Origin: a virus
Taxonomy: Duplodnaviria > Caudoviricetes
Length of the DNA stretch: 43,934 nt
Reading direction: 5' to 3' (one strand)
IMG/VR virus record: IMGVR_UViG_3300049070_000043
Span: 1 to 43,934 of that record
Below, in pieces: positions 21,758 through 43,711 of the stretch. The notes under the pieces were generated by a model that searched no databases, had not been told where the DNA came from, and saw only the letters and a program-made list of their open reading frames with translations. Positions within the stretch are counted from its first letter, which is position 1; each line of letters begins with the position of its first letter. The position numbers and the translations under genes are program-made.

Positions 21758-24586
21758 ATGAGAAACCTACTAACTACACTACTGCTACTTATCGGTCTGG
21801 GAGCTATGGCTGCTGAGCCTGTTGCTCTCAGAGGAACAAACGGATTCGGTAAAGACCTAAAGGTCGACAACTCCTTAGTCATCAAGGGACACGGTGGTGG
21901 CTTCGATGACCCTGACCTGAACCTTGGGGTAGTTACTCCAGGCAAGTCAGGTATCGGTGTCCCCTTCGATGAGATGATCGTTCAAGGTGGTGGTGCTCAC
22001 GGTATCGGGCTGTATGGAACTAACCGTCAGCCATACATTTACTTTGGCGCGAAGGACAGTGGTGGCAATAACTGGCTCGGGCCACGTGGAGCATGGCACA
22101 ACTACCCCAGCGGCAATAAGCTTCCTGGACAAACAGCAACCTACCTGCCTGGGTTCCGTAGAACAGGAGCGGCGGCGGATGTATACTTCAATCAGATCGG
22201 TGGCGGTGGCTCGGCCTTGGCTGACCTTCCTCCTCGATCAGGCGAGGTATGGGTCAATATGCAGCGTCCATTCATGGTTCTATCTACCAGGGATATTGGC
22301 ACTGGCAATAATCTGGTAAACTGCACATGGGTCACAGTATCCAATGGTGTAGCAGCATTCAAGACCAACGGATACCTAGCCTACATGCAGTCCAGGAATG
22401 TCAACATGGCCTACATTCTCGAGAATGGTTTGCTTGCCACCCACCGTGATGCTAACCAGCAGCTACAGTGGAATAATACCAGGTTCCCTACTCTACTGCA
22501 CAATACGTATGGTATGACCAACGTAGCATCATTCCTCAATACCAATTATTTGGAAATGTGGATCATGATGTATGGATTGAACCGTGTCGCATCTCCGACT
22601 AATTGGGCTGACTCCGATGGCCCAGGAGAGATTGACATGGACCCTCTGAACAACGCCCCACTATTCTGGGAGTATCCCGGCGGGGGAGCCAATCCATTCG
22701 GGGCTAATGAGTTCCAGCCAGCCCTAACGATTGACTCTATCCATCAGGATATTAGCTTGCTATACCTAAACGGATTCAGAGGTATCTGTATTCAAGAGAA
22801 CCCTGAGGTGGTAGGCATAGGTGAGTTTGATCAAATGGCTCGTATCGTAACTGATGCTTCTCGAGCGCCATACTTCGCGCCAGGACAGGCAGGTCAGCTG
22901 AGGCTCGATGCTCAGTGGAACATGTGGTATCCATCTGTAGGGGTGCCTGTAGGTAAGTCACCACACGGTATGATCGTAGGGATGATGGCAGGCACACCTA
23001 ATAAACCGTGGCCACCACATCTAGGGATGAGCCTAAACCATCTGTTTGTGGAGTCCAATGGAGCAGACCCATTTGTCCCTGCATCATTTGCGATGGGCTA
23101 TCTGATGGCACAGATAAGCTTCCAAGCTCAATTCCTTAGCAACCACTTTGGTAGATGCTTCTGGTCACCATCTACTGACGGCCTGTCCCCAGGGGATGAG
23201 ACATATAAAACCTGGAAGGGATGGTTTGGTGGATTAGCAGTAACTAAGGCCAACATGTGGTTCACCGGCGGTCAGACCACAGGGTATGACTACACCACTA
23301 CTGCTGGCTTTGGATTACTGCTTACCAACAATCTGTTCGTTGACGTATGGCAAGACGTGGATGACGAGAGACCTCCTATCATTCATCGCATGGATGCTAC
23401 CAACCATGTTATATCCAAGTTCATGAAGGATGGATCGCATCTAGTCTGGATGGCTAACGTGGGGACAATCTCCACCAACCTTACTGTCTACTTCACAAAC
23501 CTAGCTATCCCTACCAACATGGTTTGTGCAGTAACTGAAATCTGGACCAATCAACCTATCGGCACCTACACGAACTCGATGACCCTGACTATCCCGGCCT
23601 TGGATTCATTCCTGGTCAAGATCGTCCCATCCCAGGGTAGTTCCGCCGGCACCAATCGTATCAGTCTAGTATACGATGGGACTGGTGGAGCAGGTGGTGG
23701 AGGCACTGGCTTCATTCGAGTCAACAACACTAACTCAATCCAGATGTCTCCAAACGGACCCGTAGGTATTGGAGTCTCTCCTCTGGCAGACGCAGCATTG
23801 GCCGTAGGAAAGAACGTCAACTCCCTGGTGCTGTATGACGGAGCTAACTACAAATTCGTCCGTGAGAATGCAGTGACAGGTCTGCTTAAGATCACTGGCG
23901 ACCAAGGTCAGGCAAACACTGGTCTACTGTTCTATAAGGATGGAGCAGGATCACCAGTGGAAATGTCCAGGTTGTTTGGAAATACCGTGCTAATGTGTGA
24001 TTCCAACAATCCGGCTACTTGGCCTACCGTGGCCAATTCCAGGGGCGGAATAGCTATCGTGACATCGAATCACGTCCCATACGTCCTAACCAGCACGCCG
24101 GGAAGTACGACCTGGGCCGAGACCAACTATCTCGGTGTTCGCTGGGTCAAGAACATAATCCAAGGCGGCGCGCTAACCTCAGTGTCCCTGGCTAGCGGCA
24201 ATAACTGGGCGGCACCAGCAGGATTCGCTACCCCTACTTCGAGTGGTGACCAGCGTATCCAGCTTAACTTCAATGGTGGATACTTGAGCAACCTGTGGGT
24301 GATGCGAACTAACACGTTCCCAAGCACCACTAACATCGTATTCACCATACAGACCAATACGATCGACGGAAGCGCAACGGCCATATCAGCGTTAGTAGAC
24401 TCTGCTCTAACCTGCACTATGGTGGGTAACACTGCCTGCACCACCAACTCTGGTAACACGTTCATAGCTCTACCGGCAGGAGACCGGAACTACTGGACGC
24501 TGAAGATGGCAGTGAACGGAGCAGCCTCCGGCATGGCAGGTCATCCGATAACCTGGTCCGTTGAGTGGTGGCATCAAGTTCCCTAA
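21758..24586 (+). CDS. Signal-peptide protein with degenerate GH27 alpha-galactosidase-like domain (putative receptor-binding or surface protein)
   Basis: MRNLLTTLLLLIGLGAMA/AEP signal peptide; RD..QLQWNNTRFP..GMTNVASFL, LLTN..V.VWQD and melibiase C-terminal beta-sandwich pattern; Gly-rich fibre-like flanks. Confidence 0.7.
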   Translation: MRNLLTTLLLLIGLGAMAAEPVALRGTNGFGKDLKVDNSLVIKGHGGGFDDPDLNLGVVTPGKSGIGVPFDEMIVQGGGAHGIGLYGTNRQPYIYFGAKDSGGNNWLGPRGAWHNYPSGNKLPGQTATYLPGFRRTGAAADVYFNQIGGGGSALADLPPRSGEVWVNMQRPFMVLSTRDIGTGNNLVNCTWVTVSNGVAAFKTNGYLAYMQSRNVNMAYILENGLLATHRDANQQLQWNNTRFPTLLHNTYGMTNVASFLNTNYLEMWIMMYGLNRVASPTNWADSDGPGEIDMDPLNNAPLFWEYPGGGANPFGANEFQPALTIDSIHQDISLLYLNGFRGICIQENPEVVGIGEFDQMARIVTDASRAPYFAPGQAGQLRLDAQWNMWYPSVGVPVGKSPHGMIVGMMAGTPNKPWPPHLGMSLNHLFVESNGADPFVPASFAMGYLMAQISFQAQFLSNHFGRCFWSPSTDGLSPGDETYKTWKGWFGGLAVTKANMWFTGGQTTGYDYTTTAGFGLLLTNNLFVDVWQDVDDERPPIIHRMDATNHVISKFMKDGSHLVWMANVGTISTNLTVYFTNLAIPTNMVCAVTEIWTNQPIGTYTNSMTLTIPALDSFLVKIVPSQGSSAGTNRISLVYDGTGGAGGGGTGFIRVNNTNSIQMSPNGPVGIGVSPLADAALAVGKNVNSLVLYDGANYKFVRENAVTGLLKITGDQGQANTGLLFYKDGAGSPVEMSRLFGNTVLMCDSNNPATWPTVANSRGGIAIVTSNHVPYVLTSTPGSTTWAETNYLGVRWVKNIIQGGALTSVSLASGNNWAAPAGFATPTSSGDQRIQLNFNGGYLSNLWVMRTNTFPSTTNIVFTIQTNTIDGSATAISALVDSALTCTMVGNTACTTNSGNTFIALPAGDRNYWTLKMAVNGAASGMAGHPITWSVEWWHQVP

Positions 24587-24587
24587 C

Positions 24588-24854
24588 ATGAACCTGAGCA
24601 TGGATCGAAAGGTAAACCTAAACTCACTGCTGCTCTTAGTGTTGACTGTAATGTCTACACTACTGGGCTGGACCCTGAAGCGAAGCATTGATGCAGTCGA
24701 TCGCAGACTGGAAGCAATGATGCCTCGCCAGGAGATCCAGTATCAACTCGAAGTGATGGCTCAGAACTATCGACGCATGGAGCAGGAGCATCTAGACTTT
24801 CGCGCGAGACTGGTTCGAATGGAAATCGACTTCGCGCGAGTAACCAAACCATGA
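24588..24854 (+). CDS. Single-TM membrane protein with coiled coil (holin-like position)
   Basis: LLLLVLTVMSTLLGWTL hydrophobic helix then heptad-like region; ATG 1 nt after the previous stop. Confidence 0.6.
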   Translation: MNLSMDRKVNLNSLLLLVLTVMSTLLGWTLKRSIDAVDRRLEAMMPRQEIQYQLEVMAQNYRRMEQEHLDFRARLVRMEIDFARVTKP

Positions 24855-25549
24855 AAGGAACCATGATCAGAAAGACCATACTACCACTAATGCTAATCGT
24901 CCTCTGTGGCTGTCAACTATTCAGCCCAGAAGCCGCGGCCCCACCAACCACGGCTGAGAAACACTTCTTCGATGTCTCGAATTCAGTTGTGGAACGAGTC
25001 GTCGTGAAGACTAACTACGTAACGGTAACAAACCTAAACATTGACTTCAAGTGGGTCACCAACGAGTTCAATGTTCCCAAGCCTGTGCTTGTTACCAACT
25101 TTGTCGAGGTGCCAATACCCACCCCGGTCTGGGAAACTCAGAAGGTAACCATACAGCAGCTTGTCCCTGGGGCTAAGATCGAGGCAGTTAAGGGCCTAGG
25201 CCAGATTATAGGCGACCTGTTTGGCGTAGGTGGCTTAGTTGCTGCATCCATAACAGGAGCGTATAGCATCTACCTTAAGATGAGGAACAGAGCACTGTCA
25301 GGAGAAGCTGACCATATGACTCTGGCTACTGGTGGGCTAGTGGAGACTACGGAGACTATACTTAACGTCCTTAAGCAAACTCCGCAAGGCCAACAGCTAA
25401 TGCCAGCGGTAGTCTCTTATCTCGAGAAGCACCAAGAGAAGCTTGGAACCATTCAGGAGATCAGAGATCTTCTGGCGGTCATCTCCAAGTCTCGGGCCAT
25501 AGATGATGCCACAGAGATCATCAATAAGGTCAAAGGACTCACCCAGTGA
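24851..25549 (+). CDS. Lipoprotein with an internal hydrophobic helix (spanin-like candidate)
   Basis: Lipobox LCGC; TN-rich beta region; GLGQIIGDLFGVGGLVAASITGAYSIYL hydrophobic segment. Confidence 0.65.
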   Translation: MKGTMIRKTILPLMLIVLCGCQLFSPEAAAPPTTAEKHFFDVSNSVVERVVVKTNYVTVTNLNIDFKWVTNEFNVPKPVLVTNFVEVPIPTPVWETQKVTIQQLVPGAKIEAVKGLGQIIGDLFGVGGLVAASITGAYSIYLKMRNRALSGEADHMTLATGGLVETTETILNVLKQTPQGQQLMPAVVSYLEKHQEKLGTIQEIRDLLAVISKSRAIDDATEIINKVKGLTQ

Positions 25550-25995
25550 GATACCTCCTACTCTTATTGGTTCTGCTCTCTGGATGCGTGAGCACCGGAC
25601 AGAGGACGGTAGTTAAGCCTCGACGCTATCTACCGTCCCAGCCTCCGCCACCACCTCCAGGACTTCGACTGAACTCGGCACAGATTCAGGATGATAACCT
25701 GCCTCCAGTGGCAAGTATCACGGTTGTCTCAACTAATGCAGTGATACCAGAGCCTACCGGAGTATCTGCCTCACGCTGGTTCATAACCAATAGTGTCCTC
25801 ACCATTCTGTATCATGCCAATTCAAACCAGTTCTATGGACTCCAATGGACCAGTAATCTGGTCAACTGGAGCTTCTTATCTGGGGCAATGTCAGATGGTG
25901 GAGAGCAGTCCTTTGGAGTAACAATAAACAACACCGTCGGCTTACCACCGACAGTGTTCCTCAGGATTGTGACTGGGCCAGCGCCTACGTTTTAG
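25546..25995 (+). CDS. Pro-rich lipoprotein with Verrucomicrobia-type C-terminal beta domain
   Basis: Lipobox LSGC, PPPPPP linker, YGLQWTSNLVNW...FLRIV motif. Confidence 0.65.
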   Translation: MRYLLLLLVLLSGCVSTGQRTVVKPRRYLPSQPPPPPPGLRLNSAQIQDDNLPPVASITVVSTNAVIPEPTGVSASRWFITNSVLTILYHANSNQFYGLQWTSNLVNWSFLSGAMSDGGEQSFGVTINNTVGLPPTVFLRIVTGPAPTF

Positions 25996-32413: not shown

Positions 32414-32790
32414 AGGGTCAAATATTCTACTATTTCTTTGATATCTTTCTTGCCGAAGACCTTAGACGGGTCTCCTGTTAATCGTTGATACTCCGAGTTC
32501 AGCTTCTCTGTCTGTAACGGATGCTTGAATATGACAACCATCCTGGGCTTAGGCATCTCTATCACCACGAAGACTCTGCCTCCAGCATTGCTACGGCGTC
32601 GACCCCACACATTCTGCTCCTTCCTAACCTTGAAGAAATCCTCAAAGACCTTAAGCTCTAGCCAGGTCTCAATACCATTAAGACAAATGTTAACGTCGGG
32701 GAAACCGTTACTCACGGTGTTCTCTATCCTGACTACGTCGCCAGGAATGTATGGCCGTAGCCACTGCCAGAATCGTTGCTCGGGTCTCAT
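32410..32790 (-). CDS. VRR-NUC / PD-(D/E)XK nuclease (Holliday-junction resolvase-like)
   Basis: RIEN..GFPDV..WLELK..Q..W..GG motifs. Confidence 0.85.
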   Translation of the reverse strand: MRPEQRFWQWLRPYIPGDVVRIENTVSNGFPDVNICLNGIETWLELKVFEDFFKVRKEQNVWGRRRSNAGGRVFVVIEMPKPRMVVIFKHPLQTEKLNSEYQRLTGDPSKVFGKKDIKEIVEYLTL

Positions 32791-34667
32791 TTCCAGTGTT
32801 TACCTATGTATGGTTCGGCGTTGATAGGGATGGTTAAATTGACACAGTTCTCCATTCTGAACTGGATAAGGGCTGCATCCTTCTCCCCTCCGATGGAGTA
32901 ATCTAGCTCGTCATGGACTGTAAGGAGGGGAATCTTACCCATCTCCTTGTAAACCAGGACCATAGCAGCCTTGGTCATATCAGCAGCGGAACCTTGGATT
33001 AGAGCATTGAGAGCCTTGTAGGTGTAGGCACGCTTGAGAGGCACCTTGCCTTCCCACTTGCCGTGTGCTGCCTCCATGGGCAGAGGTGGCTCATACTCGC
33101 TATTCCTGCCCCACTTAGGTTCCCACAGGTCGAACCTTCGACGTCTTCCCAGGATGGTCTTGATGTATCCATTGTTCTCTGCCCTAGCCATGGCTAACTC
33201 CGCCATCATTGCTATGAATGGATTTGCATTACTGAAAGTCTCTTTGATCTGCATGGCTCTGTCCACAGACACACCTAAGTCTCTGGCCAGCTTCTCTTTA
33301 CCCTCGCCATACATAAGGCCCAGGCTGACTACCTTGGCTGGAATCCTCTCAAGGTTTGCTTCAGCACTAACCAGCTTGTAGAAATCTGTGGTCTTGTCAT
33401 TAAGGTAAGCATCCCTCATCTTTGATGCTCCCTGGAACTTCATGATGTAGGCAAAGTGAGTCAGTATTCGTGGCTCCTGCTGAGAGTAGTCAAGCTTGCC
33501 CCATAGCTCTCCCTCATTAGGCAGGAACAGTGACCTAATCTTAGGCGCAATAACCTTGTCCCTGGATGGAATCTGCTGGAGGTTGGGATTACTAGAGGCA
33601 AACCTACCAGACCTGGTCCCACCTTCCTCCCACCTTAGCTGCTGGAACTCAGCATGTATCCTGCCATTGACGTGATACTTGAAGATTAGATCATCTATGA
33701 AAAGGGTGCGCAGTCTGTTGATGTTCCTGACCTCTCTGATCTGCTTGAAGAACTTATGATCACTGTTAGCCAGGAACACCTTGTCGAAAGACGGGTTTCC
33801 CTTGAGTGTCCTCGGCACCGGGAGGTTTAGAAGGCTACATGCTCTCTCGATACTCTTGTTCGACCATACGTCCAGAGTAAAGCCAACAGACTTGCGAAGA
33901 GCATTGTATAGTTTGTCTTCCTCCTTCTTGAGTTCCTTCGACAGCAGAGACGCCTTCTCAAGATCAACACGGACTCCCTGTAGCCGCATGGCCAGGATGA
34001 TTTCAATAAGATCAGATTCGAGGTCGTGTATCTTCTCCAGCCCCTGCCTCTTAAGCTCCACCAGTTGCTTCTCGTAGATATCAAGGGTTAGCTTAGGGTC
34101 AGTCTCCCCATAGCTGCCCACATACTTCGAGTGGAGCATCCATAGTCCAGTCTTTGGGTCCGTGCCGTAGGCTGATGCTGCCTCCTTGAGTAGGCTCTCA
34201 TCCTTCTGTAGGCCCAGCCACTTCTTAGCTAGGCCATTCAGGTCGTAGCCATAGGGAGACTCCTCATCCAATAAAGCCTCTGCAATGCCGGTATCCCTGA
34301 GTCTGCCGGCCACACGTATTCCAAGGAAGGCCAGCCATTCAAGGTCGTAGTCGAGATGATGCCCAACTACCTCCAGGTCGTGCCTTGCCAGAACGTCCGT
34401 GAAGAATTGAATGACTGGCCCCCTAGGGACATTACCACCCATCTCGTGTGCGATAGGATAGTAGGCTTTGAAGCCGGTATCGGTAGCAAATCCGATACCT
34501 ACAGGGTAGCCATCCCGTCGTATTGACCCTGGTCCCAGATCAGTAAGATTCGGGTCTTTGGTTTCTAGATCAATACAGACTCTCTTCACGCCAGTCATAG
34601 CAGGGAAGTCCAGCCTGGGTTTCCAGGTGGCTTCTGGCTCAAAGAGAACTAGATTGATTCCGCTCAT
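32787..34667 (-). CDS. polA: Family A DNA polymerase with 3'-5' exonuclease, Leu762 variant
   Basis: Exonuclease DLET; SGRFASSNPNLQQIP; motif A DYSQQEPR; motif B AKVVSLGLMYG; motif C VHDE. Confidence 0.95.
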   Translation of the reverse strand: MSGINLVLFEPEATWKPRLDFPAMTGVKRVCIDLETKDPNLTDLGPGSIRRDGYPVGIGFATDTGFKAYYPIAHEMGGNVPRGPVIQFFTDVLARHDLEVVGHHLDYDLEWLAFLGIRVAGRLRDTGIAEALLDEESPYGYDLNGLAKKWLGLQKDESLLKEAASAYGTDPKTGLWMLHSKYVGSYGETDPKLTLDIYEKQLVELKRQGLEKIHDLESDLIEIILAMRLQGVRVDLEKASLLSKELKKEEDKLYNALRKSVGFTLDVWSNKSIERACSLLNLPVPRTLKGNPSFDKVFLANSDHKFFKQIREVRNINRLRTLFIDDLIFKYHVNGRIHAEFQQLRWEEGGTRSGRFASSNPNLQQIPSRDKVIAPKIRSLFLPNEGELWGKLDYSQQEPRILTHFAYIMKFQGASKMRDAYLNDKTTDFYKLVSAEANLERIPAKVVSLGLMYGEGKEKLARDLGVSVDRAMQIKETFSNANPFIAMMAELAMARAENNGYIKTILGRRRRFDLWEPKWGRNSEYEPPLPMEAAHGKWEGKVPLKRAYTYKALNALIQGSAADMTKAAMVLVYKEMGKIPLLTVHDELDYSIGGEKDAALIQFRMENCVNLTIPINAEPYIGKHWK

Positions 34668-35101
34668 TCGAAGTTGTATAAAACCCCATCCTTGTCAGGC
34701 ACCTGGTATACCTCGATGCCATAGAACTTGGCTACCTCGAAGGCATCCTTGTCCTTATCATACTTCTTCTCGAAGTATAGCTCCCTAATGTCCAGCCTAC
34801 CGAGGATGGTCATACAGTGAACGCATGGAAACAAAGTGATAACTACGGCTCTGGCCAACCTGCCTCTTAGATTTATAGCCAGGTCCACCTCTGCATGGAT
34901 CATGAACTTTCTCCTGGCGTCTCTGTCATACCAGAATGCTTCGTCCACAGTCTTGGTTCGGTTGAATCCACTGGCCATAAACTCTCCTCTCCAGTCGAGA
35001 GCTATACAGGCAACTTTCATGTATGGATCAGATGAGAAGTTGTCGGCAAACTTCTTCGCCCGATCCATGTATTTCGACTGACTATCGAGTGAGATGAGCA
35101 T
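34664..35101 (-). CDS. dCMP deaminase
   Basis: HAE and PCxxC zinc motifs, S.DP..KV and GFN. Confidence 0.88.
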   Translation of the reverse strand: MLISLDSQSKYMDRAKKFADNFSSDPYMKVACIALDWRGEFMASGFNRTKTVDEAFWYDRDARRKFMIHAEVDLAINLRGRLARAVVITLFPCVHCMTILGRLDIRELYFEKKYDKDKDAFEVAKFYGIEVYQVPDKDGVLYNFE

Positions 35102-35909
35102 ATACAGCCTTAAAGAAACGTGACTTTATCATACTGCTACCGTAGTCTGGGTAGTCCCTCATGATCCGAAGATCATCGATCAGCTCTGTAGTCTCATCCC
35201 ACTCTGCTGGGTCCAGGATGGGGCACTGCCAAGCTGGTTCAGGGTCTTTCAGAGTCATGGATGCTGCCTGTAGGTTCTTCAGATACAGATGCTGACTACC
35301 AGCAGACATCATGAACACACCTAGCTTGACTGGTCTAGCCCTTCTGTTCAGCCGGATGGCTATGCAGACGGCCACCATCACAAAACTGAATACGTCGTAG
35401 GGATACCCTAGCCAGATGTCAGAGCTACGCATGTTGTGAATCACATGCAAGAAGCCATCCCTGACTATGAACTGAGTAGATAGGGTGCAGGGTATATCCT
35501 TGGACGGCTGAGGTTTCCTGTTCCAGCAGGTCATTACTGCCTGCCGGCTGCTGAGGTCGTTCACCAGGGTATCGACTACGTAGCCAAACTGATCTACTAC
35601 GTTAGGCCCATAAGCTCCTGCCAGGGTTACCCCATCATCAGAGTATGCCGCGTAGCTGGGTGCATACTTCTCCAATTCAGATAGCTTGTTGCTGCCTGTT
35701 AGTATCCAGTATGCCTCAGCAAACATGAACCTGTAGCTGACGTTTCGACGCTCGACTGTGAGTATAGGCTGCTTCATCTCAATACATGTAGACATGCCTA
35801 GTATCTCAGTGGTAGCATTGCCCCGTGGCTCGACACGATGGCCAAGCTTGGTCAGGAGATCCAGCATTCTAACCCACACATCGTTCAGCGGGCTTCCAGA
35901 GATGTTCAT
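35082..35909 (-). CDS. Thymidylate-synthase-family enzyme with dCMP-type Asp (putative dCMP methylase/hydroxymethylase)
   Basis: AEAYW, YG, SSRQAV, DIPCT (Cys141), MRSSDIWLGYPYD (Asp172) and HLY. Confidence 0.85.
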   Translation of the reverse strand: MNISGSPLNDVWVRMLDLLTKLGHRVEPRGNATTEILGMSTCIEMKQPILTVERRNVSYRFMFAEAYWILTGSNKLSELEKYAPSYAAYSDDGVTLAGAYGPNVVDQFGYVVDTLVNDLSSRQAVMTCWNRKPQPSKDIPCTLSTQFIVRDGFLHVIHNMRSSDIWLGYPYDVFSFVMVAVCIAIRLNRRARPVKLGVFMMSAGSQHLYLKNLQAASMTLKDPEPAWQCPILDPAEWDETTELIDDLRIMRDYPDYGSSMIKSRFFKAVYAHLTR

Positions 35910-36426
35910 ATATCCTTTCGCATGCCTTGTCGAGGTCTTGTCCGTCAGTGTCGAGGTTATAGAGTAGCACCTTGTTGTAGTCTAACTCCTGAAACAGGTT
36001 CTTGTAGTTAGCATACACTTGGTAATACTGGTCCTTACTAAGAGCATGAGCCGGGTCTTCGTGTCCTGCACGATACCGGTCCCATCCCTTCGCTGAAAAG
36101 CAGAACACATACAGCCCACCCACCCTAGCCAGAGCTTCGTGGATGATAGCAGCCCTAAGTGTATAGTTGTTTCTAGGTCGCAGCAGCCAGCTACCATAGG
36201 CTACTTCTGATGGCCAGAAGCGATCGAGCACAAAGGTCTGTTCTGATTCTTGAATGTTGTCCAAGATGTTCTCGTGATAGTCAGCTAGTCCAGGAAATAG
36301 AGCCTTGGACGCCGTGCAATGCCAGTATATCCAGCCATACTTCTGGGCCAGATGTCGAGACAGTGTGGTCTTCCCACAACAGTCCGGTCCTTCAACGATC
36401 ACCGGTGGGTTCATAATGTTCGCCAT
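35869..36426 (-). CDS. dNMP kinase (thymidylate-kinase-like)
   Basis: IVEGPDCCGKTT P-loop and LDRFWPSE..YG motif. Confidence 0.85.
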   Translation of the reverse strand: MANIMNPPVIVEGPDCCGKTTLSRHLAQKYGWIYWHCTASKALFPGLADYHENILDNIQESEQTFVLDRFWPSEVAYGSWLLRPRNNYTLRAAIIHEALARVGGLYVFCFSAKGWDRYRAGHEDPAHALSKDQYYQVYANYKNLFQELDYNKVLLYNLDTDGQDLDKACERIYEHLWKPAERCVG

Positions 36427-36934
36427 GCTTACCGAATGCAGCTTTGAGTATCTTAACCAGATCAGGTGGAGTATAGGTCATGCCCTTGTGAACCGTGGCC
36501 CCAAATTTACCCTCTCCTGCCGGCACGCATTCCTTGGACATGTTTGACCGCTGTATCTCAGCCCATCCTTCCTGGGTGGGCAGACCCTGGAGATACAGTG
36601 TGCCAAACACAACATACGCAAGGTCGAGGAGAGCATCGAACTGCTTGACTAGGTCTCCCTCCTTAACTGCATCATTGTATTCCTTGAGTTCCTCCCTCAT
36701 GAATTTCGTCCTCCAGGCATACTCCTCTGGTAACGCTCTGGGTGGACCGTCATACACCTGATTGAAAGCCTCATGAAAGGTCTTTATATCAGATACGAAA
36801 TTATCTCCCGGTATGGAGGGCTTGCCGTTCAAGAGAACAGCAAGCCCCTGGGCAATGAATCCCTCGGGAGATACCTGCTCTTCGGAGTCCAGGACTTTAG
36901 CGAACTTCGCTCTTATCTCCTGCTCTTTATTCAT
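36392..36934 (-). CDS. MazG-like all-alpha dNTP pyrophosphohydrolase
   Basis: FHEAF, EELKEY, DALLDLAYV..G and EIQRSNMSK motifs. Confidence 0.85.
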   Translation of the reverse strand: MNKEQEIRAKFAKVLDSEEQVSPEGFIAQGLAVLLNGKPSIPGDNFVSDIKTFHEAFNQVYDGPPRALPEEYAWRTKFMREELKEYNDAVKEGDLVKQFDALLDLAYVVFGTLYLQGLPTQEGWAEIQRSNMSKECVPAGEGKFGATVHKGMTYTPPDLVKILKAAFGKHGEHYEPTGDR

Positions 36935-37581
36935 GCCACCATCCCTTCTGTGATCAGAACTTTCTCACCTGATGGCGACCCGATCTTCCAGTAGAAGTCG
37001 AGGCCTGCCTTAACATACTTCATTCTGTCCTTGGCGGCAGCCCACGAGTAGTTCCAGTTCTGAGGGAACTGCATCGCACTGCCACCACACATCATGAAGT
37101 CGATTACGTTCTCTGCACAGTCGTCAATGAGCAGATGCTCCGGCTTGGCCATCATGAACTTATGCTTGCCAAGCATGATGTTAGCCTTAGGTAAGGCTGG
37201 GAGGTTGTGCCTAAGCCATCGCACCTTCTGTTCGTAGCAGCCGGGGTGAAGGCCAGGAGAGGTTGAGACGATGACGTTACCCTTGGACACATCGAGGCAC
37301 ATGTTCAGTAACTCGACAGCCCAGGGATACATCGGTAGGTCGAACCAGAAGCCATGAGTGGAGTCAATGTCCTCCCATAAGTCCTCAGTAGTGTAAGGAT
37401 AGCCAAGAAGCTTGGCTACCCAGTCCTCTATCTTGTATGGCCACGGTTTCGGGTAGTCGTTAGGTATCTGAGACAGGCTCAGACCGTGTAGCCTAAAGAC
37501 TCCCGTGAAGAAGTCAGCCAGGACTCCGTCCATGTCCAGAAGTATCACTGGCTTGTGTTGATTGCTGCTCGGAGGTTTCAT
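36931..37581 (-). CDS. HAD-family 5'(3')-deoxyribonucleotidase (NT5C-like)
   Basis: LLDMDGVLADF, FWFDLP, TSP, K..WL and LLIDD motifs. Confidence 0.88.
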   Translation of the reverse strand: MKPPSSNQHKPVILLDMDGVLADFFTGVFRLHGLSLSQIPNDYPKPWPYKIEDWVAKLLGYPYTTEDLWEDIDSTHGFWFDLPMYPWAVELLNMCLDVSKGNVIVSTSPGLHPGCYEQKVRWLRHNLPALPKANIMLGKHKFMMAKPEHLLIDDCAENVIDFMMCGGSAMQFPQNWNYSWAAAKDRMKYVKAGLDFYWKIGSPSGEKVLITEGMVA

Positions 37582-37628: not shown

Positions 37629-38660
37629 TCAGAATTGTGGATCATTTTCTGGATTTGCTCCAGATGTGAGATCGTCGAATCTTCCTGGATTTTCGGATTC
37701 GAATGGTCCTGCATCTAGGTCTCCTGGTGGTCGAAACCCCAGGAAGACAGGACAACGAGGAGCAGTCTTGACGCCATGGGGTTGGTATTTGTATTTTACC
37801 TTTTGGTATAGATAGGTTTGCTGATTCCGCCATATGTCCTCTCTGGTGGCATCGTCGAAGCCGGTCCCAATGTTAAACTGTATACCATTGTGCCCGACTA
37901 CTTTGAGTGCTCCTAGTGTGCCTGCTGGCACCATGTTTTCTTGATAGTCTGATCTCTCCGATAGACCTAATGCGTTCTTGGTTTGTTCATTCTGGTTACG
38001 CATTAGCTCCTCGAAGCCAATGACTGTTGCCTCAGCATCCTGGAACCTCTTGAGCTTTAGCAGCCAGTGTTGCTTGAATGTAGAACGGCCAAACTTATAT
38101 GGCCCATCCACATGTCTAAGCATTACTCCCTCGAACCCTTGCAATAAGACTGCCTCCTCGTAGGCAAGCAGCGCAGCCTCATCCTGTATGAGAACAGGGA
38201 GTAGTTTCCTGAGTCGAGTGTCCTCCGGAAATTTCATCTCATCCTTGAGCCATGCCACTCTGTCCCAATGGGGTCGTGGCTCAATGAGATCGAAGACGTG
38301 ATAGTAGAAGTCAGGAGTGCCGGCTTCCGACATGACCTTGGATTGAACAGTGTTGTAGTTGTCCATCTGTCCGTCTGTGTAGGTCACGATCTCACCATCA
38401 AGGCCAGTCAGGTTATAGCTGGCCAGAGTCTGCTGTATGTGCAGATTAGGGATGGGCAGTAGAACCCTACTTACTGCCTCCACGTTGGTCTTTGCGAACA
38501 GATCGTATATCTGCTTTTCCCTTGTTATGCACCTTATCCCGTCTACCTTGGGTGTTGCAAGTAGAGGATACTGTAGCAGACCTAGCTCTTTTATTTTGGC
38601 TGCGAGCATTGGCCTGAAGTCGGGACTCATCACGAACTGATTTCTGACTGTCATTACCAT
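37629..38660 (-). CDS. lig: ATP-dependent DNA ligase
   Basis: PMLA, KVDGIR (adenylated Lys), LDGEI, FDL, EGVMLR, LLKLK, IGTGF and PVFLGFR motifs. Confidence 0.93.
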   Translation of the reverse strand: MVMTVRNQFVMSPDFRPMLAAKIKELGLLQYPLLATPKVDGIRCITREKQIYDLFAKTNVEAVSRVLLPIPNLHIQQTLASYNLTGLDGEIVTYTDGQMDNYNTVQSKVMSEAGTPDFYYHVFDLIEPRPHWDRVAWLKDEMKFPEDTRLRKLLPVLIQDEAALLAYEEAVLLQGFEGVMLRHVDGPYKFGRSTFKQHWLLKLKRFQDAEATVIGFEELMRNQNEQTKNALGLSERSDYQENMVPAGTLGALKVVGHNGIQFNIGTGFDDATREDIWRNQQTYLYQKVKYKYQPHGVKTAPRCPVFLGFRPPGDLDAGPFESENPGRFDDLTSGANPENDPQF

Positions 38661-39301: not shown

Positions 39302-39415
39302 CATAACTGATGTCGCGCACTGTGTAGGGCTTGCTCCGTCTCCTCGTGATAGTGATTCGGACTTATCACAGGTGCTGACAAGCGTTCCCATATTCAGTGC
39401 GCGAAATTAGCTATG
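39302..39415 (-). other. Long rod-like intergenic RNA hairpin (RNase III site or ncRNA candidate)
   Basis: Nested inverted repeats 39313-39322/39395-39404, 39329-39333/39379-39383 and 39346-39351/39364-39369. Confidence 0.55.
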
Positions 39416-39827
39416 GTGAACTAGGTCGGTTAGTTGGTCCAGTCTGACCTCCACCAGTCGTGAAGCCATTAGTAATGTGCCAGCGATCATCATAGATGTT
39501 CGTGGACATACGGAATTGTGAGTCGTCGTTAGGATAATTACCATGGTAATGCCAGAACCAGTTCGTCGTATAGTTCACTGGATCAGCTTGGAGGATGCCC
39601 CGATAAGACCACGGAGTATCGTTACTCAGGTATGGACTGAACGAGTAAGTCCACTGCATGTAGACTGTAACGTTAGTCGGCATGGGTGGAAGCCAATATT
39701 TCATCCAGAAGTAGCCGCCGACCGGGTCGTTGGTTGCCAGCAGGAAGCCTCCACAGTTGGGAGTCTGCGCACGCAGTAGTAACGGAATCAACAGCACTAA
39801 CAGTAGACTGCATTTTGGTAGTTTCAT
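39411..39827 (-). CDS. Secreted TN-rich protein
   Basis: Start at 39827 (ATGA overlap) gives signal peptide MKLPKCSLLLVLLIPLLLRA/Q; 6 TN dipeptides in 138 aa. Confidence 0.7.
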   Translation of the reverse strand: MKLPKCSLLLVLLIPLLLRAQTPNCGGFLLATNDPVGGYFWMKYWLPPMPTNVTVYMQWTYSFSPYLSNDTPWSYRGILQADPVNYTTNWFWHYHGNYPNDDSQFRMSTNIYDDRWHITNGFTTGGGQTGPTNRPSSP

Positions 39828-40162
39828 GTTTCCTTTCTTTGTTGCTTTTCTTCCATGATGCTGTATAGCACCATGAAATCTGTTACGGTCTTGAGAGCCG
39901 GAGTGAGGATGGATTCCCACTTGGTGTGGACTTCCTGGACAAACGCCTGTATCTTGTCATTGTAACAGTCGAATGTTACTTTGGCAGGACTAGACGTGAC
40001 GGAGATGTTACAGAGGCAATGCTCTGTCTCGAATCTGAATGGTATTAGATCTGCTCTAACACCTATCTGTATCTTTTCAATCCATTCAGGATCAAACTGG
40101 TAGAGGAGTGTGACTCTGCTTGAATCACTGCCATGGCCCTCCACTTGGTATTGTAGTTTCAC
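39824..40162 (-). CDS. Hypothetical protein
   Basis: 112 aa ORF in the tightly packed minus-strand series. Confidence 0.6.
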   Translation of the reverse strand: MKLQYQVEGHGSDSSRVTLLYQFDPEWIEKIQIGVRADLIPFRFETEHCLCNISVTSSPAKVTFDCYNDKIQAFVQEVHTKWESILTPALKTVTDFMVLYSIMEEKQQRKET

Positions 40163-43201: not shown

Positions 43202-43711
43202 TTAGCTGAGGGCCTTCAGGATGGTGGTGCGCTGATCCCCGGTCAGGGACTCGATGTTTTCATCCTTGCCGAACCATTCCACGATGCGAGTGTTGGTCAG
43301 ATTGAAACCCTGGGCCGACGCCTTGTAACCGAACGTGCCTTTCGGGTGAACCAGAGCGCCTTTCTCGTTGGTGAGCTTCTCGAGATGCTGCTTGCGAGCC
43401 TGGATTTTCTTGATCTCGTTCTGGTCCCACTTGGGTTCAGTCTGGTCAACCAGGTTGTTCTCTGCCAGCCTGTTGCAGATGTCACGAGTGGTCCAGCGGA
43501 AACCCTTGCCGTCTTCGGCCTTTTCTTTGAGCATCGTGTCGATGATCAAGAACCGCTCATCCCGCTTGCCGACAGTCTCCTTGCGCTTCTCTTTGAGCTG
43601 TTTCTGGAGAGCCTGGAGCTGTTCAGGAGTGAGCTTGGCCAGGTCGATGCCGCCATTATCGGTGGATTTGGCAGGGGTCGCTGCGGTTTTGGTAGTTTTA
43701 GCTGTAGCCAT
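43202..43711 (-). CDS. Early hypothetical protein, paralog of 1058-1531
   Basis: 169 aa; Lys/Thr/Ala-rich N-terminal tail; shares motifs with 1058-1531. Confidence 0.85.
   Translation of the reverse strand: MATAKTTKTAATPAKSTDNGGIDLAKLTPEQLQALQKQLKEKRKETVGKRDERFLIIDTMLKEKAEDGKGFRWTTRDICNRLAENNLVDQTEPKWDQNEIKKIQARKQHLEKLTNEKGALVHPKGTFGYKASAQGFNLTNTRIVEWFGKDENIESLTGDQRTTILKALS

Follow-up and report, generated by a model that had tools for sequence, protein, structure and literature searches.

The window analysed here is the whole of record IMGVR_UViG_3300049070_000043 (G000), a single contig of 43,934 bases from a phage of the class Caudoviricetes, with a completeness rating of 100%. On its minus strand, between genes for an ATP-dependent DNA ligase and a family A DNA polymerase (polA), lie five packed genes encoding a HAD nucleotidase, a MazG-like (PRA-PH) pyrophosphatase, a deoxynucleoside monophosphate (dNMP) kinase, a thymidylate-synthase (TS) homolog and a deoxycytidylate (dCMP) deaminase (Table 1). 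We propose, with a probability of roughly 0.6, that this cassette leads to DNA in which 5-hydroxymethylcytosine (hmC) stands for most or all of the cytosine, while thymine stays ordinary and the modified base is left undecorated.

Pfam and PHROG matches, together with the coordinates, confirm the five-gene cluster, the protein families and the packing against polA that an earlier note on this DNA had described. Taken in the order HAD, PRA-PH, kinase, TS, deaminase and polA, the annotated genes overlap by 4, 35, 41, 20 and 4 nt. The cluster had been presented as overlapping throughout, which holds for the packed minus-strand genes but probably not for the TS-deaminase junction: the second Met of the deaminase, 11 codons after the first ATG, is probably its true start, because the database form has 134 aa and a relative of 84% identity begins there, and a 13-nt gap then replaces the 20-nt TS overlap. 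The gene order is not due to chance, since the identical order recurs in relatives whose proteins share 33-58% identity.

Table 1. Coordinates of the cassette, its diagnostic codons and its flanking genes in the window
Feature	Position	Strand	Basis
NT5C-type HAD 5'(3')-deoxyribonucleotidase, 216 aa	36931..37581	-	PF06941, E 1.7e-14
MazG-like (PRA-PH) dNTP pyrophosphatase, 180 aa, predicted dCTPase/dUTPase	36392..36934	-	PF01503, 9e-14; phrog_671; substrate predicted
dNMP kinase, 185 aa, predicted hmdCMP kinase	35869..36426	-	phrog_761 thymidylate kinase, 4.3e-15; substrate predicted
TS homolog, 275 aa, predicted dCMP 5-hydroxymethylase	35082..35909	-	PF00303, 8.1e-22
Asp138 codon (E. coli L143 position), hydroxymethylase-type residue	35496..35498	-	alignment; rule from PMC13326640
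Cys141 codon	35487-35489	-	alignment with E. coli ThyA C146
Asp172 codon (E. coli N177 position), dCMP-specificity residue	35394..35396	-	alignment
dCMP/dCTP deaminase, likely true start 35068 (134 aa)	34664..35101	-	PF00383, 4.5e-10; HAE and PCxxC motifs
Family A DNA polymerase (polA)	32787..34667	-	PF00476 and PF01612
ATP-dependent DNA ligase, upstream of cassette	37629..38660	-	PF01068 and PF14743

The active site of the TS homolog

We aligned the window TS with E. coli ThyA, T4 gp42, RB69 gp48, SPO1 gp29, PaMx11 gp51 and the enzymes of phages Xp12 and PaMx74. Its active-site residues are E65, R122, D138, C141, T142, S162, D164, D172, H207 and Y209, of which C141 and E65 align with the catalytic Cys (C146) and Glu (E58) of dCMP hydroxymethylases. 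The pair Cys141/Asp172 that the earlier note had recognized aligns with C146 and N177 of E. coli ThyA, and the Asp172 codon lies where it had been placed. Diagnostic substitutions have been given in ThyA numbering, with N177D indicating dCMP as the substrate, L143D/E a hydroxymethyl rather than a methyl product and D169N a 5-hydroxylase (PMC13326640). In E. coli numbering, the window TS carries D143, T147, M165, S167, D169 and D177, which is the set of T4 gp42; the two enzymes also share C146 and are remote from each other in sequence (27% identity over 78 aa). N177D with L143D corresponds to the hydroxymethylase signature, and the retained Asp at 169 departs from that of the 5-hydroxylases. 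We favor hmC over 5-methylcytosine (5mC) because Asp and Thr stand at positions 143 and 147, as in T4 gp42, where the two known 5mdCMP synthases have Asn and Pro, and because no gene for dihydrofolate reductase (DHFR) was found.

The alignment also bears on the other activities known in this family. RB69 gp48 has N169 at the position where the window TS keeps Asp (D164), which argues against a 5-hydroxy-dCMP synthase, and SPO1 gp29 and PaMx11 gp51 have N177 where the window TS has Asp, which argues against a dUMP hydroxymethylase. A canonical ThyA would not be expected to have Tyr, Asp and Thr at positions 80, 143 and 147 and Asp at 177, and the protein scores under every NCBIfam ThyA cut-off. 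The Xp12 and PaMx74 enzymes resemble the window TS in having D177 and in being encoded beside a deaminase and a PRA-PH protein, but they carry W80, N143, P147 and L165. The deoxyribose is selected by the equivalents of Ser (S167) and Arg (R126), which are Ala176 and Lys133 in MilA for ribo-CMP (PMC5175136); the window TS, with S162 and R122, is of the deoxy type and differs here from MilA and BcmA. MilA, the CMP 5-hydroxymethylase of the mildiomycin pathway, also has Asp at the 143 and 177 positions (PMC13326640). It is the best solved match of the window TS both by sequence (E 2.6e-26, against 1.9e-15 for the best TS) and by fold (Foldseek TM score of 0.82, against at most 0.73, for a predicted model with pLDDT 96.9).

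All 119 homologs compared carry D138, C141, T142, S162, D164 and D172, and the D/D/D pattern is found in 157 of 165 TS locus copies (seven were not parsed and one was mis-parsed). The TS gene is under purifying selection, as its differences from a variant contig are almost all at third codon positions (17 of the 18 substitutions listed, with four further rows not displayed). The earlier note had suggested a phylogeny, and in a quick tree of 45 randomly drawn TS rows and 16 references the 5mC enzymes of Xp12 and PaMx74 cluster with ThyA/Td (SH-aLRT 99), away from the clade of the window TS. From its sequence, we predict that the TS homolog is likely a dCMP hydroxymethylase. A different combination is seen in a gene annotated td in the T4-like phage VR20 (KP007360; L255:562-1422), which lies next to DHFR and combines L143 and H147 with Asp at 177, as expected for a dCMP methylase.

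Relatives of the cassette and its partner enzymes

The TS cassette family is large and common. Counts of TS loci are among the matches listed, from scans estimated at ~970 and ~2000 stretches, and many of the loci are incomplete. Among 165 listed TS loci, the kinase is found in 146, PRA-PH in 129, the deaminase in 125, PolA in 108 and an S-adenosylmethionine (SAM) methyltransferase in 105; all four core genes occur together in 106, 86 of which also have the methyltransferase. The latter heads the cassette in ~105 loci (for example, L001:5668-6492 and L063:5749-6603), and a literature search for a methoxymethyl base in phages found nothing. Stenotrophomonas phage AXL3 (gp27-31), PW916, ct3Et533 and ctUtU524 belong to the same TS clade (39-49% identity) and have the same core order; they differ from the window in having the SAM methyltransferase in the HAD slot. 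The AXL3 TS is 41% identical to that of the window, with the same active-site residues. Many relatives (L019, L020 and others) have a longer kinase (~330 aa) whose added C-terminal part is unannotated, and others have a kinase-PRA-PH fusion or an unannotated 346-aa gene inserted between the two. In T7-like phages of the pelagiphage HTVC200P type (L003, L027, L051, L091, L137 and L146), kinase and TS are found with no adjoining pyrophosphatase or deaminase.

Three other genomes (G001, G002 and G005) share most core genes with the window and form with it one methyltransferase-less lineage, in which the position of the ligase is the same. The HAD arrangement, with small intervening genes, is also found in G001 (97% complete) and G005 (73%), and the cassette of G002 (100% complete) has neither HAD nor methyltransferase. 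The PRA-PH protein of G005 is replaced by a distinct protein of 106 aa (L259:3314-3634), which is presumably MazG-like from its motifs, an assignment that Pfam did not confirm.

The cassette corresponds in its four predicted activities to the hmC pathway of T4 (gp42, the dCTPase gp56, the kinase gp1, the deaminase Cd and glucosyltransferases), and it differs in being a compact podovirus cassette that feeds a family A polymerase and in which no glucosyltransferase was found. A neighborhood of TS, deaminase, PRA-PH and PolA was reported by MetaGPA in restriction-resistant contigs and showed enrichment among contigs selected by experiment for modified C (104 of 149, against 17 of 277) (10.1101/2024.12.05.627091), and the same domains together with D177 were linked to modified contigs (PMC8670742). 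The window resembles it in having a D177 TS with dCMP deaminase, PRA-PH, PolA and ligase. The MetaGPA papers characterized 5mC deaminase and hmC carbamoyltransferase branches, and the window has no carbamoyltransferase; neither the window TS clade nor HAD is treated in the accessible parts of these papers (10.1101/2024.12.05.627091; PMC8670742).

Mammalian 5'(3')-deoxyribonucleotidases, which prefer dUMP and dTMP, are the best solved matches of the HAD protein (E 3e-7). The protein occupies the slot held by the SAM methyltransferase in most relatives, and it was found by tblastn in 0 of 167 other TS loci. HAD was considered as a dedicated pathway enzyme, a role weakened by the scarcity of its relatives near the window TS type (2 of 80 loci, both in one phage) and by the G002 cassette that lacks it. 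We regard it as probably an accessory nucleotidase. The modified-base interpretation of the earlier note is supported for a predicted dCMP-using TS homolog within a base-substitution module and probably does not hold for HAD as a dedicated member.

The deaminase best matches that of PBCV-1 among solved structures (7fh4, E 8e-7), an enzyme described as acting on dCMP and dCTP (10.1101/2024.12.05.627091). Only 1 of 67 loci with its relatives lies near any TS. As a PF00383 protein encoded in cis to a D177 TS, the window deaminase is of the kind that was screened for mSCD enzymes, a combination that served only as a screening filter; the 5mC-selective trait of mSCD enzymes is described as polyphyletic, and no residue signature is given in the accessible part of that report (10.1101/2024.12.05.627091). 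The best NCBIfam score of polA is to DpoZ, far under the cut-off (269 against 500 bits), and no PurZ gene was seen in the window. Motif B of polA has Leu at the position that we take to be F762 of E. coli Pol I.

The earlier note saw no glycosyltransferase, and this was borne out in the window: none was named in Pfam scans of 58 protein entries (not all distinct genes, with short open reading frames [ORFs] partly scanned), none in the PHROG scan, and PF00534 had no match in six frames, searches that remote families could escape. Family searches of the window for a carbamoyltransferase and for ThyX were also negative with positive controls, a SAM methyltransferase profile run in six frames gave nothing at E<=1, and neither a second TS nor another conserved family neighbor was found hidden in the window. 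A search for aGPT-Pplase3 had no match anywhere, controls included, and is uninformative. Since neither a glycosyl- nor a carbamoyltransferase was found, the hmC would be undecorated. Methylation by TS uses up folate and hydroxymethylation does not (PMC5175136). For DHFR, PF00186 had no match in the 100%-complete window genome (the control matched in 10 of 14 genomes), and the DHFR of Xp12 used as query found 0 of 167 related TS loci.

In the pathway that we propose, all of whose substrate assignments we infer, the TS homolog would convert dCMP, methylene-tetrahydrofolate and water to 5hmdCMP without a need for DHFR, the kinase would phosphorylate 5hmdCMP, and host kinases would complete the triphosphate. 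The MazG-like enzyme would drain dCTP, following the logic of T4 gp56, or dCTP would be deaminated to dUTP and then hydrolyzed to dUMP. The deaminase may divert spare dCMP or dCTP to dUMP, presumably for the thymidylate synthase of the host, given that neither ThyX nor another TS is encoded by the phage. PolA would then incorporate hmdCTP, and HAD may be an optional nucleotidase that helps to balance the pools. Such a pathway would serve a partial escape from type II restriction.

Restriction sites and competing explanations

GTAC is the sole 4-mer nearly missing from the window, with three occurrences (4677, 8820 and 24105) against ~130 expected, and 2 against 96 under synonymous-codon shuffles. 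This loss, also seen in G001, G002, G005, L017 and L046, is probably driven by the host because it follows a ligase-bearing subgroup with or without the methyltransferase, and it points to a GTAC restriction system in the host. RsaI and CviQI cut hmC DNA (T4gt) and 5mC DNA (Xp12) partially and glucosylated T4 DNA not at all (PMC7653180, tables S1-S3), and enzymes of the PabI family attack the adenine of GTAC (PMC10273834); the near-absence of GTAC fits a restriction that tolerates hmC. Of 85 TS loci, 17 strongly avoid a short palindromic site; among 93 loci that lack such a TS the number is 51, and the sites they avoid are mainly AGCT, CTNAG, TCNNGA, CCNGG, GCGC and GGCC. The rarer avoidance in TS loci fits modified cytosine. 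Strong avoidance was seen in 5 of 14 TS loci without the methyltransferase and in 12 of 71 with it, which does not establish a difference between the two (Fisher p=0.14).

Several points weigh against substitution of most or all cytosine by hmC. The best solved match of the PRA-PH protein is DR2231 (E 7e-5), which we take to be a dUTPase and not a dCTPase. In the quick tree, from which MilA was missing, the branches of T4 gp42 and RB69 were flagged as unreliable, and the control loci in the comparison of site avoidance were not de-duplicated and have different hosts. The L143 rule is presented as a correlation (PMC13326640), and Xp12 has Asn at 143, one residue class from Asp. Compared with synonymous-codon shuffles, the window is depleted of GGATCC (0 against 10.3), GAGCTC (0 against 9.0), CTGCAG (1 against 12.9) and AGGCCT (1 against 8.3), and GGNNCC is missing from G002 and G005; there is no avoidance of TCGA, a site that is cut in hmC DNA. 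Commercial enzymes for these five avoided sites are blocked on T4gt hmC DNA (PMC7653180), so C-containing sites seem to be still under selection in the lineage, which argues that protection is incomplete: substitution may be partial, host enzymes may tolerate hmC, or the avoidance may be old. Only two out of 37 enzymes cleaved the DNA of AXL3, and their sites consist of A and T alone (PMC7504290). This resistance speaks for modified cytosine in a cultured relative, but it does not bear out plain hmC because AXL3 has a methyltransferase. Finally, a literature search found no study or enzyme assay of the window TS clade.

These data could be accommodated if hmC replaced only part of the cytosine, the MazG-like enzyme being merely a dUTPase and dCTP staying available, a scheme that we consider unlikely. 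The avoidance of sites blocked by hmC in vitro, the kinship with DR2231 and the HTVC200P type, which has kinase and TS only, speak for it; however, the avoidance may be an old trait or reflect host enzymes that act despite groups at C5, most of the listed TS loci retain a gene in the pyrophosphatase position, and G005 has the different MazG-like candidate there. For a complete substitution, an enzyme that destroys dCTP may be provided by the MazG-like gene, and the pattern of site avoidance is mixed. The earlier note had offered 5mC as well as hmC, and the conversion of dCMP through 5-methyl-dCMP to dTMP as an unusual route. The first of these stands for hmC and is disfavored for 5mC, as is the second, which is not new and corresponds to the known route of Xp12 (10.1101/2024.12.05.627091). 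In that scheme, the TS would make 5-methyl-dCMP, the DNA would contain 5mC and the deaminase would convert 5mdCTP to dTTP. We find it very unlikely, despite the deaminase gene directly following the TS gene as in Xp12 and PaMx74, the lack of another TS in the genome, and the match of the deaminase to 7fh4, also reported for mSCD-B5 (10.1101/2024.12.05.627091): the window TS has D143, T147 and M165 and no W80, against N, P, L and W in Xp12 and PaMx74, to whose enzymes it is only 28% identical, both of these phages encode a DHFR, and their deaminases are just 25-26% identical to that of the window.

A longer shot is the deamination of some hmdC to hmdU, with HAD removing dTMP, so that a single hydroxymethylase would yield DNA with both hmC and 5-hydroxymethyluracil (hmU). 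HAD resembles nucleotidases with a suitable substrate preference and is present in three of the four methyltransferase-less genomes compared. mSCD-B5 deaminated 65% of 5hmdCTP within 30 min, and enzymes of this kind lead to hmU in DNA in vivo, but among 90 TS-linked deaminases screened just 7 produced hmU, five of them beside confirmed 5mdCMP synthases (10.1101/2024.12.05.627091), which also leaves the third route of the earlier note, from hmdCMP through hmdUMP to 5hmU DNA, with weak prospects. The HAD-less cassette of G002 and the rarity of HAD and deaminase relatives near TS genes speak against it as well, and a literature search on this point found no phage in which a single hydroxymethylase supplies the two bases. 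We give the same small chance to the decoration of hmC by an unrecognized phage or host enzyme. Decoration looks like the norm of the family, given the methyltransferase in most loci with the four core genes, and ~20 small ORFs of the window have no family; these unannotated ORFs are short, however, none of at least 150 aa with a transferase-like role is common to G001, G002 and G005, and the methyltransferase profile was negative. Least probable of all is an ordinary operon for dTTP supply (dCMP to dUMP to dTMP to dTDP) in a phage with canonical DNA. This is the reading given in the AXL3 paper (PMC7504290), and it would agree with the strong site avoidance in the window and with Asp at 177 in the td-annotated gene of VR20. 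Against it stand N177D, L143D, H147T, the loss of W80 and the low ThyA scores; moreover, AXL3 has a ThyX-type gene in addition, and enzymes whose sites contain G/C fail to cut its DNA (PMC7504290).

Genomic setting and significance

The phage is of the podovirus type, as judged from its terminase, head-tail connector, capsid and nozzle genes, all on the plus strand, and its replication genes lie on the minus strand. No end repeats were found at the ends of the record, and a terminal repeat search was likewise negative; contigs from three runs reach beyond the right end and did not reveal a junction with base 1 that would point to a circular genome. Two related small basic genes on the minus strand (1058-1531 and 43202-43711) lie near opposite ends of the record and have matches in G001, G002 and G005. 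All 24 listed sequencing runs that contain the region are soil metagenomes (three possibly its own source), and no RNA dataset was among them. Thr-Asn-rich, signal-peptide-like proteins (21758-25995 and 39411-39920) presumably resemble those of Verrucomicrobia, and a homolog search with one of them (ORF 25546-25995) returned only its own cluster and no clue to the host. A scan of the window for promoters and terminators gave results at chance level.

The hmC pathway itself is known; what sets this phage apart is that its hmC is predicted to be undecorated, that it has a probably accessory HAD and that it has lost GTAC, and the gain would be modest unless hmU also appears. If our proposal of hmC without decoration is true, this lineage would represent a natural phage with undecorated hmC, of which a narrow literature search found none, the usual source of such DNA being the mutant T4gt. 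Type IV enzymes attack plain hmC (PMC7653180), and the lineage may therefore be informative on host defenses. For the large phage family with the methyltransferase, it would also offer a natural control in which that gene is lacking, and a comparison would show what the methyltransferase contributes.

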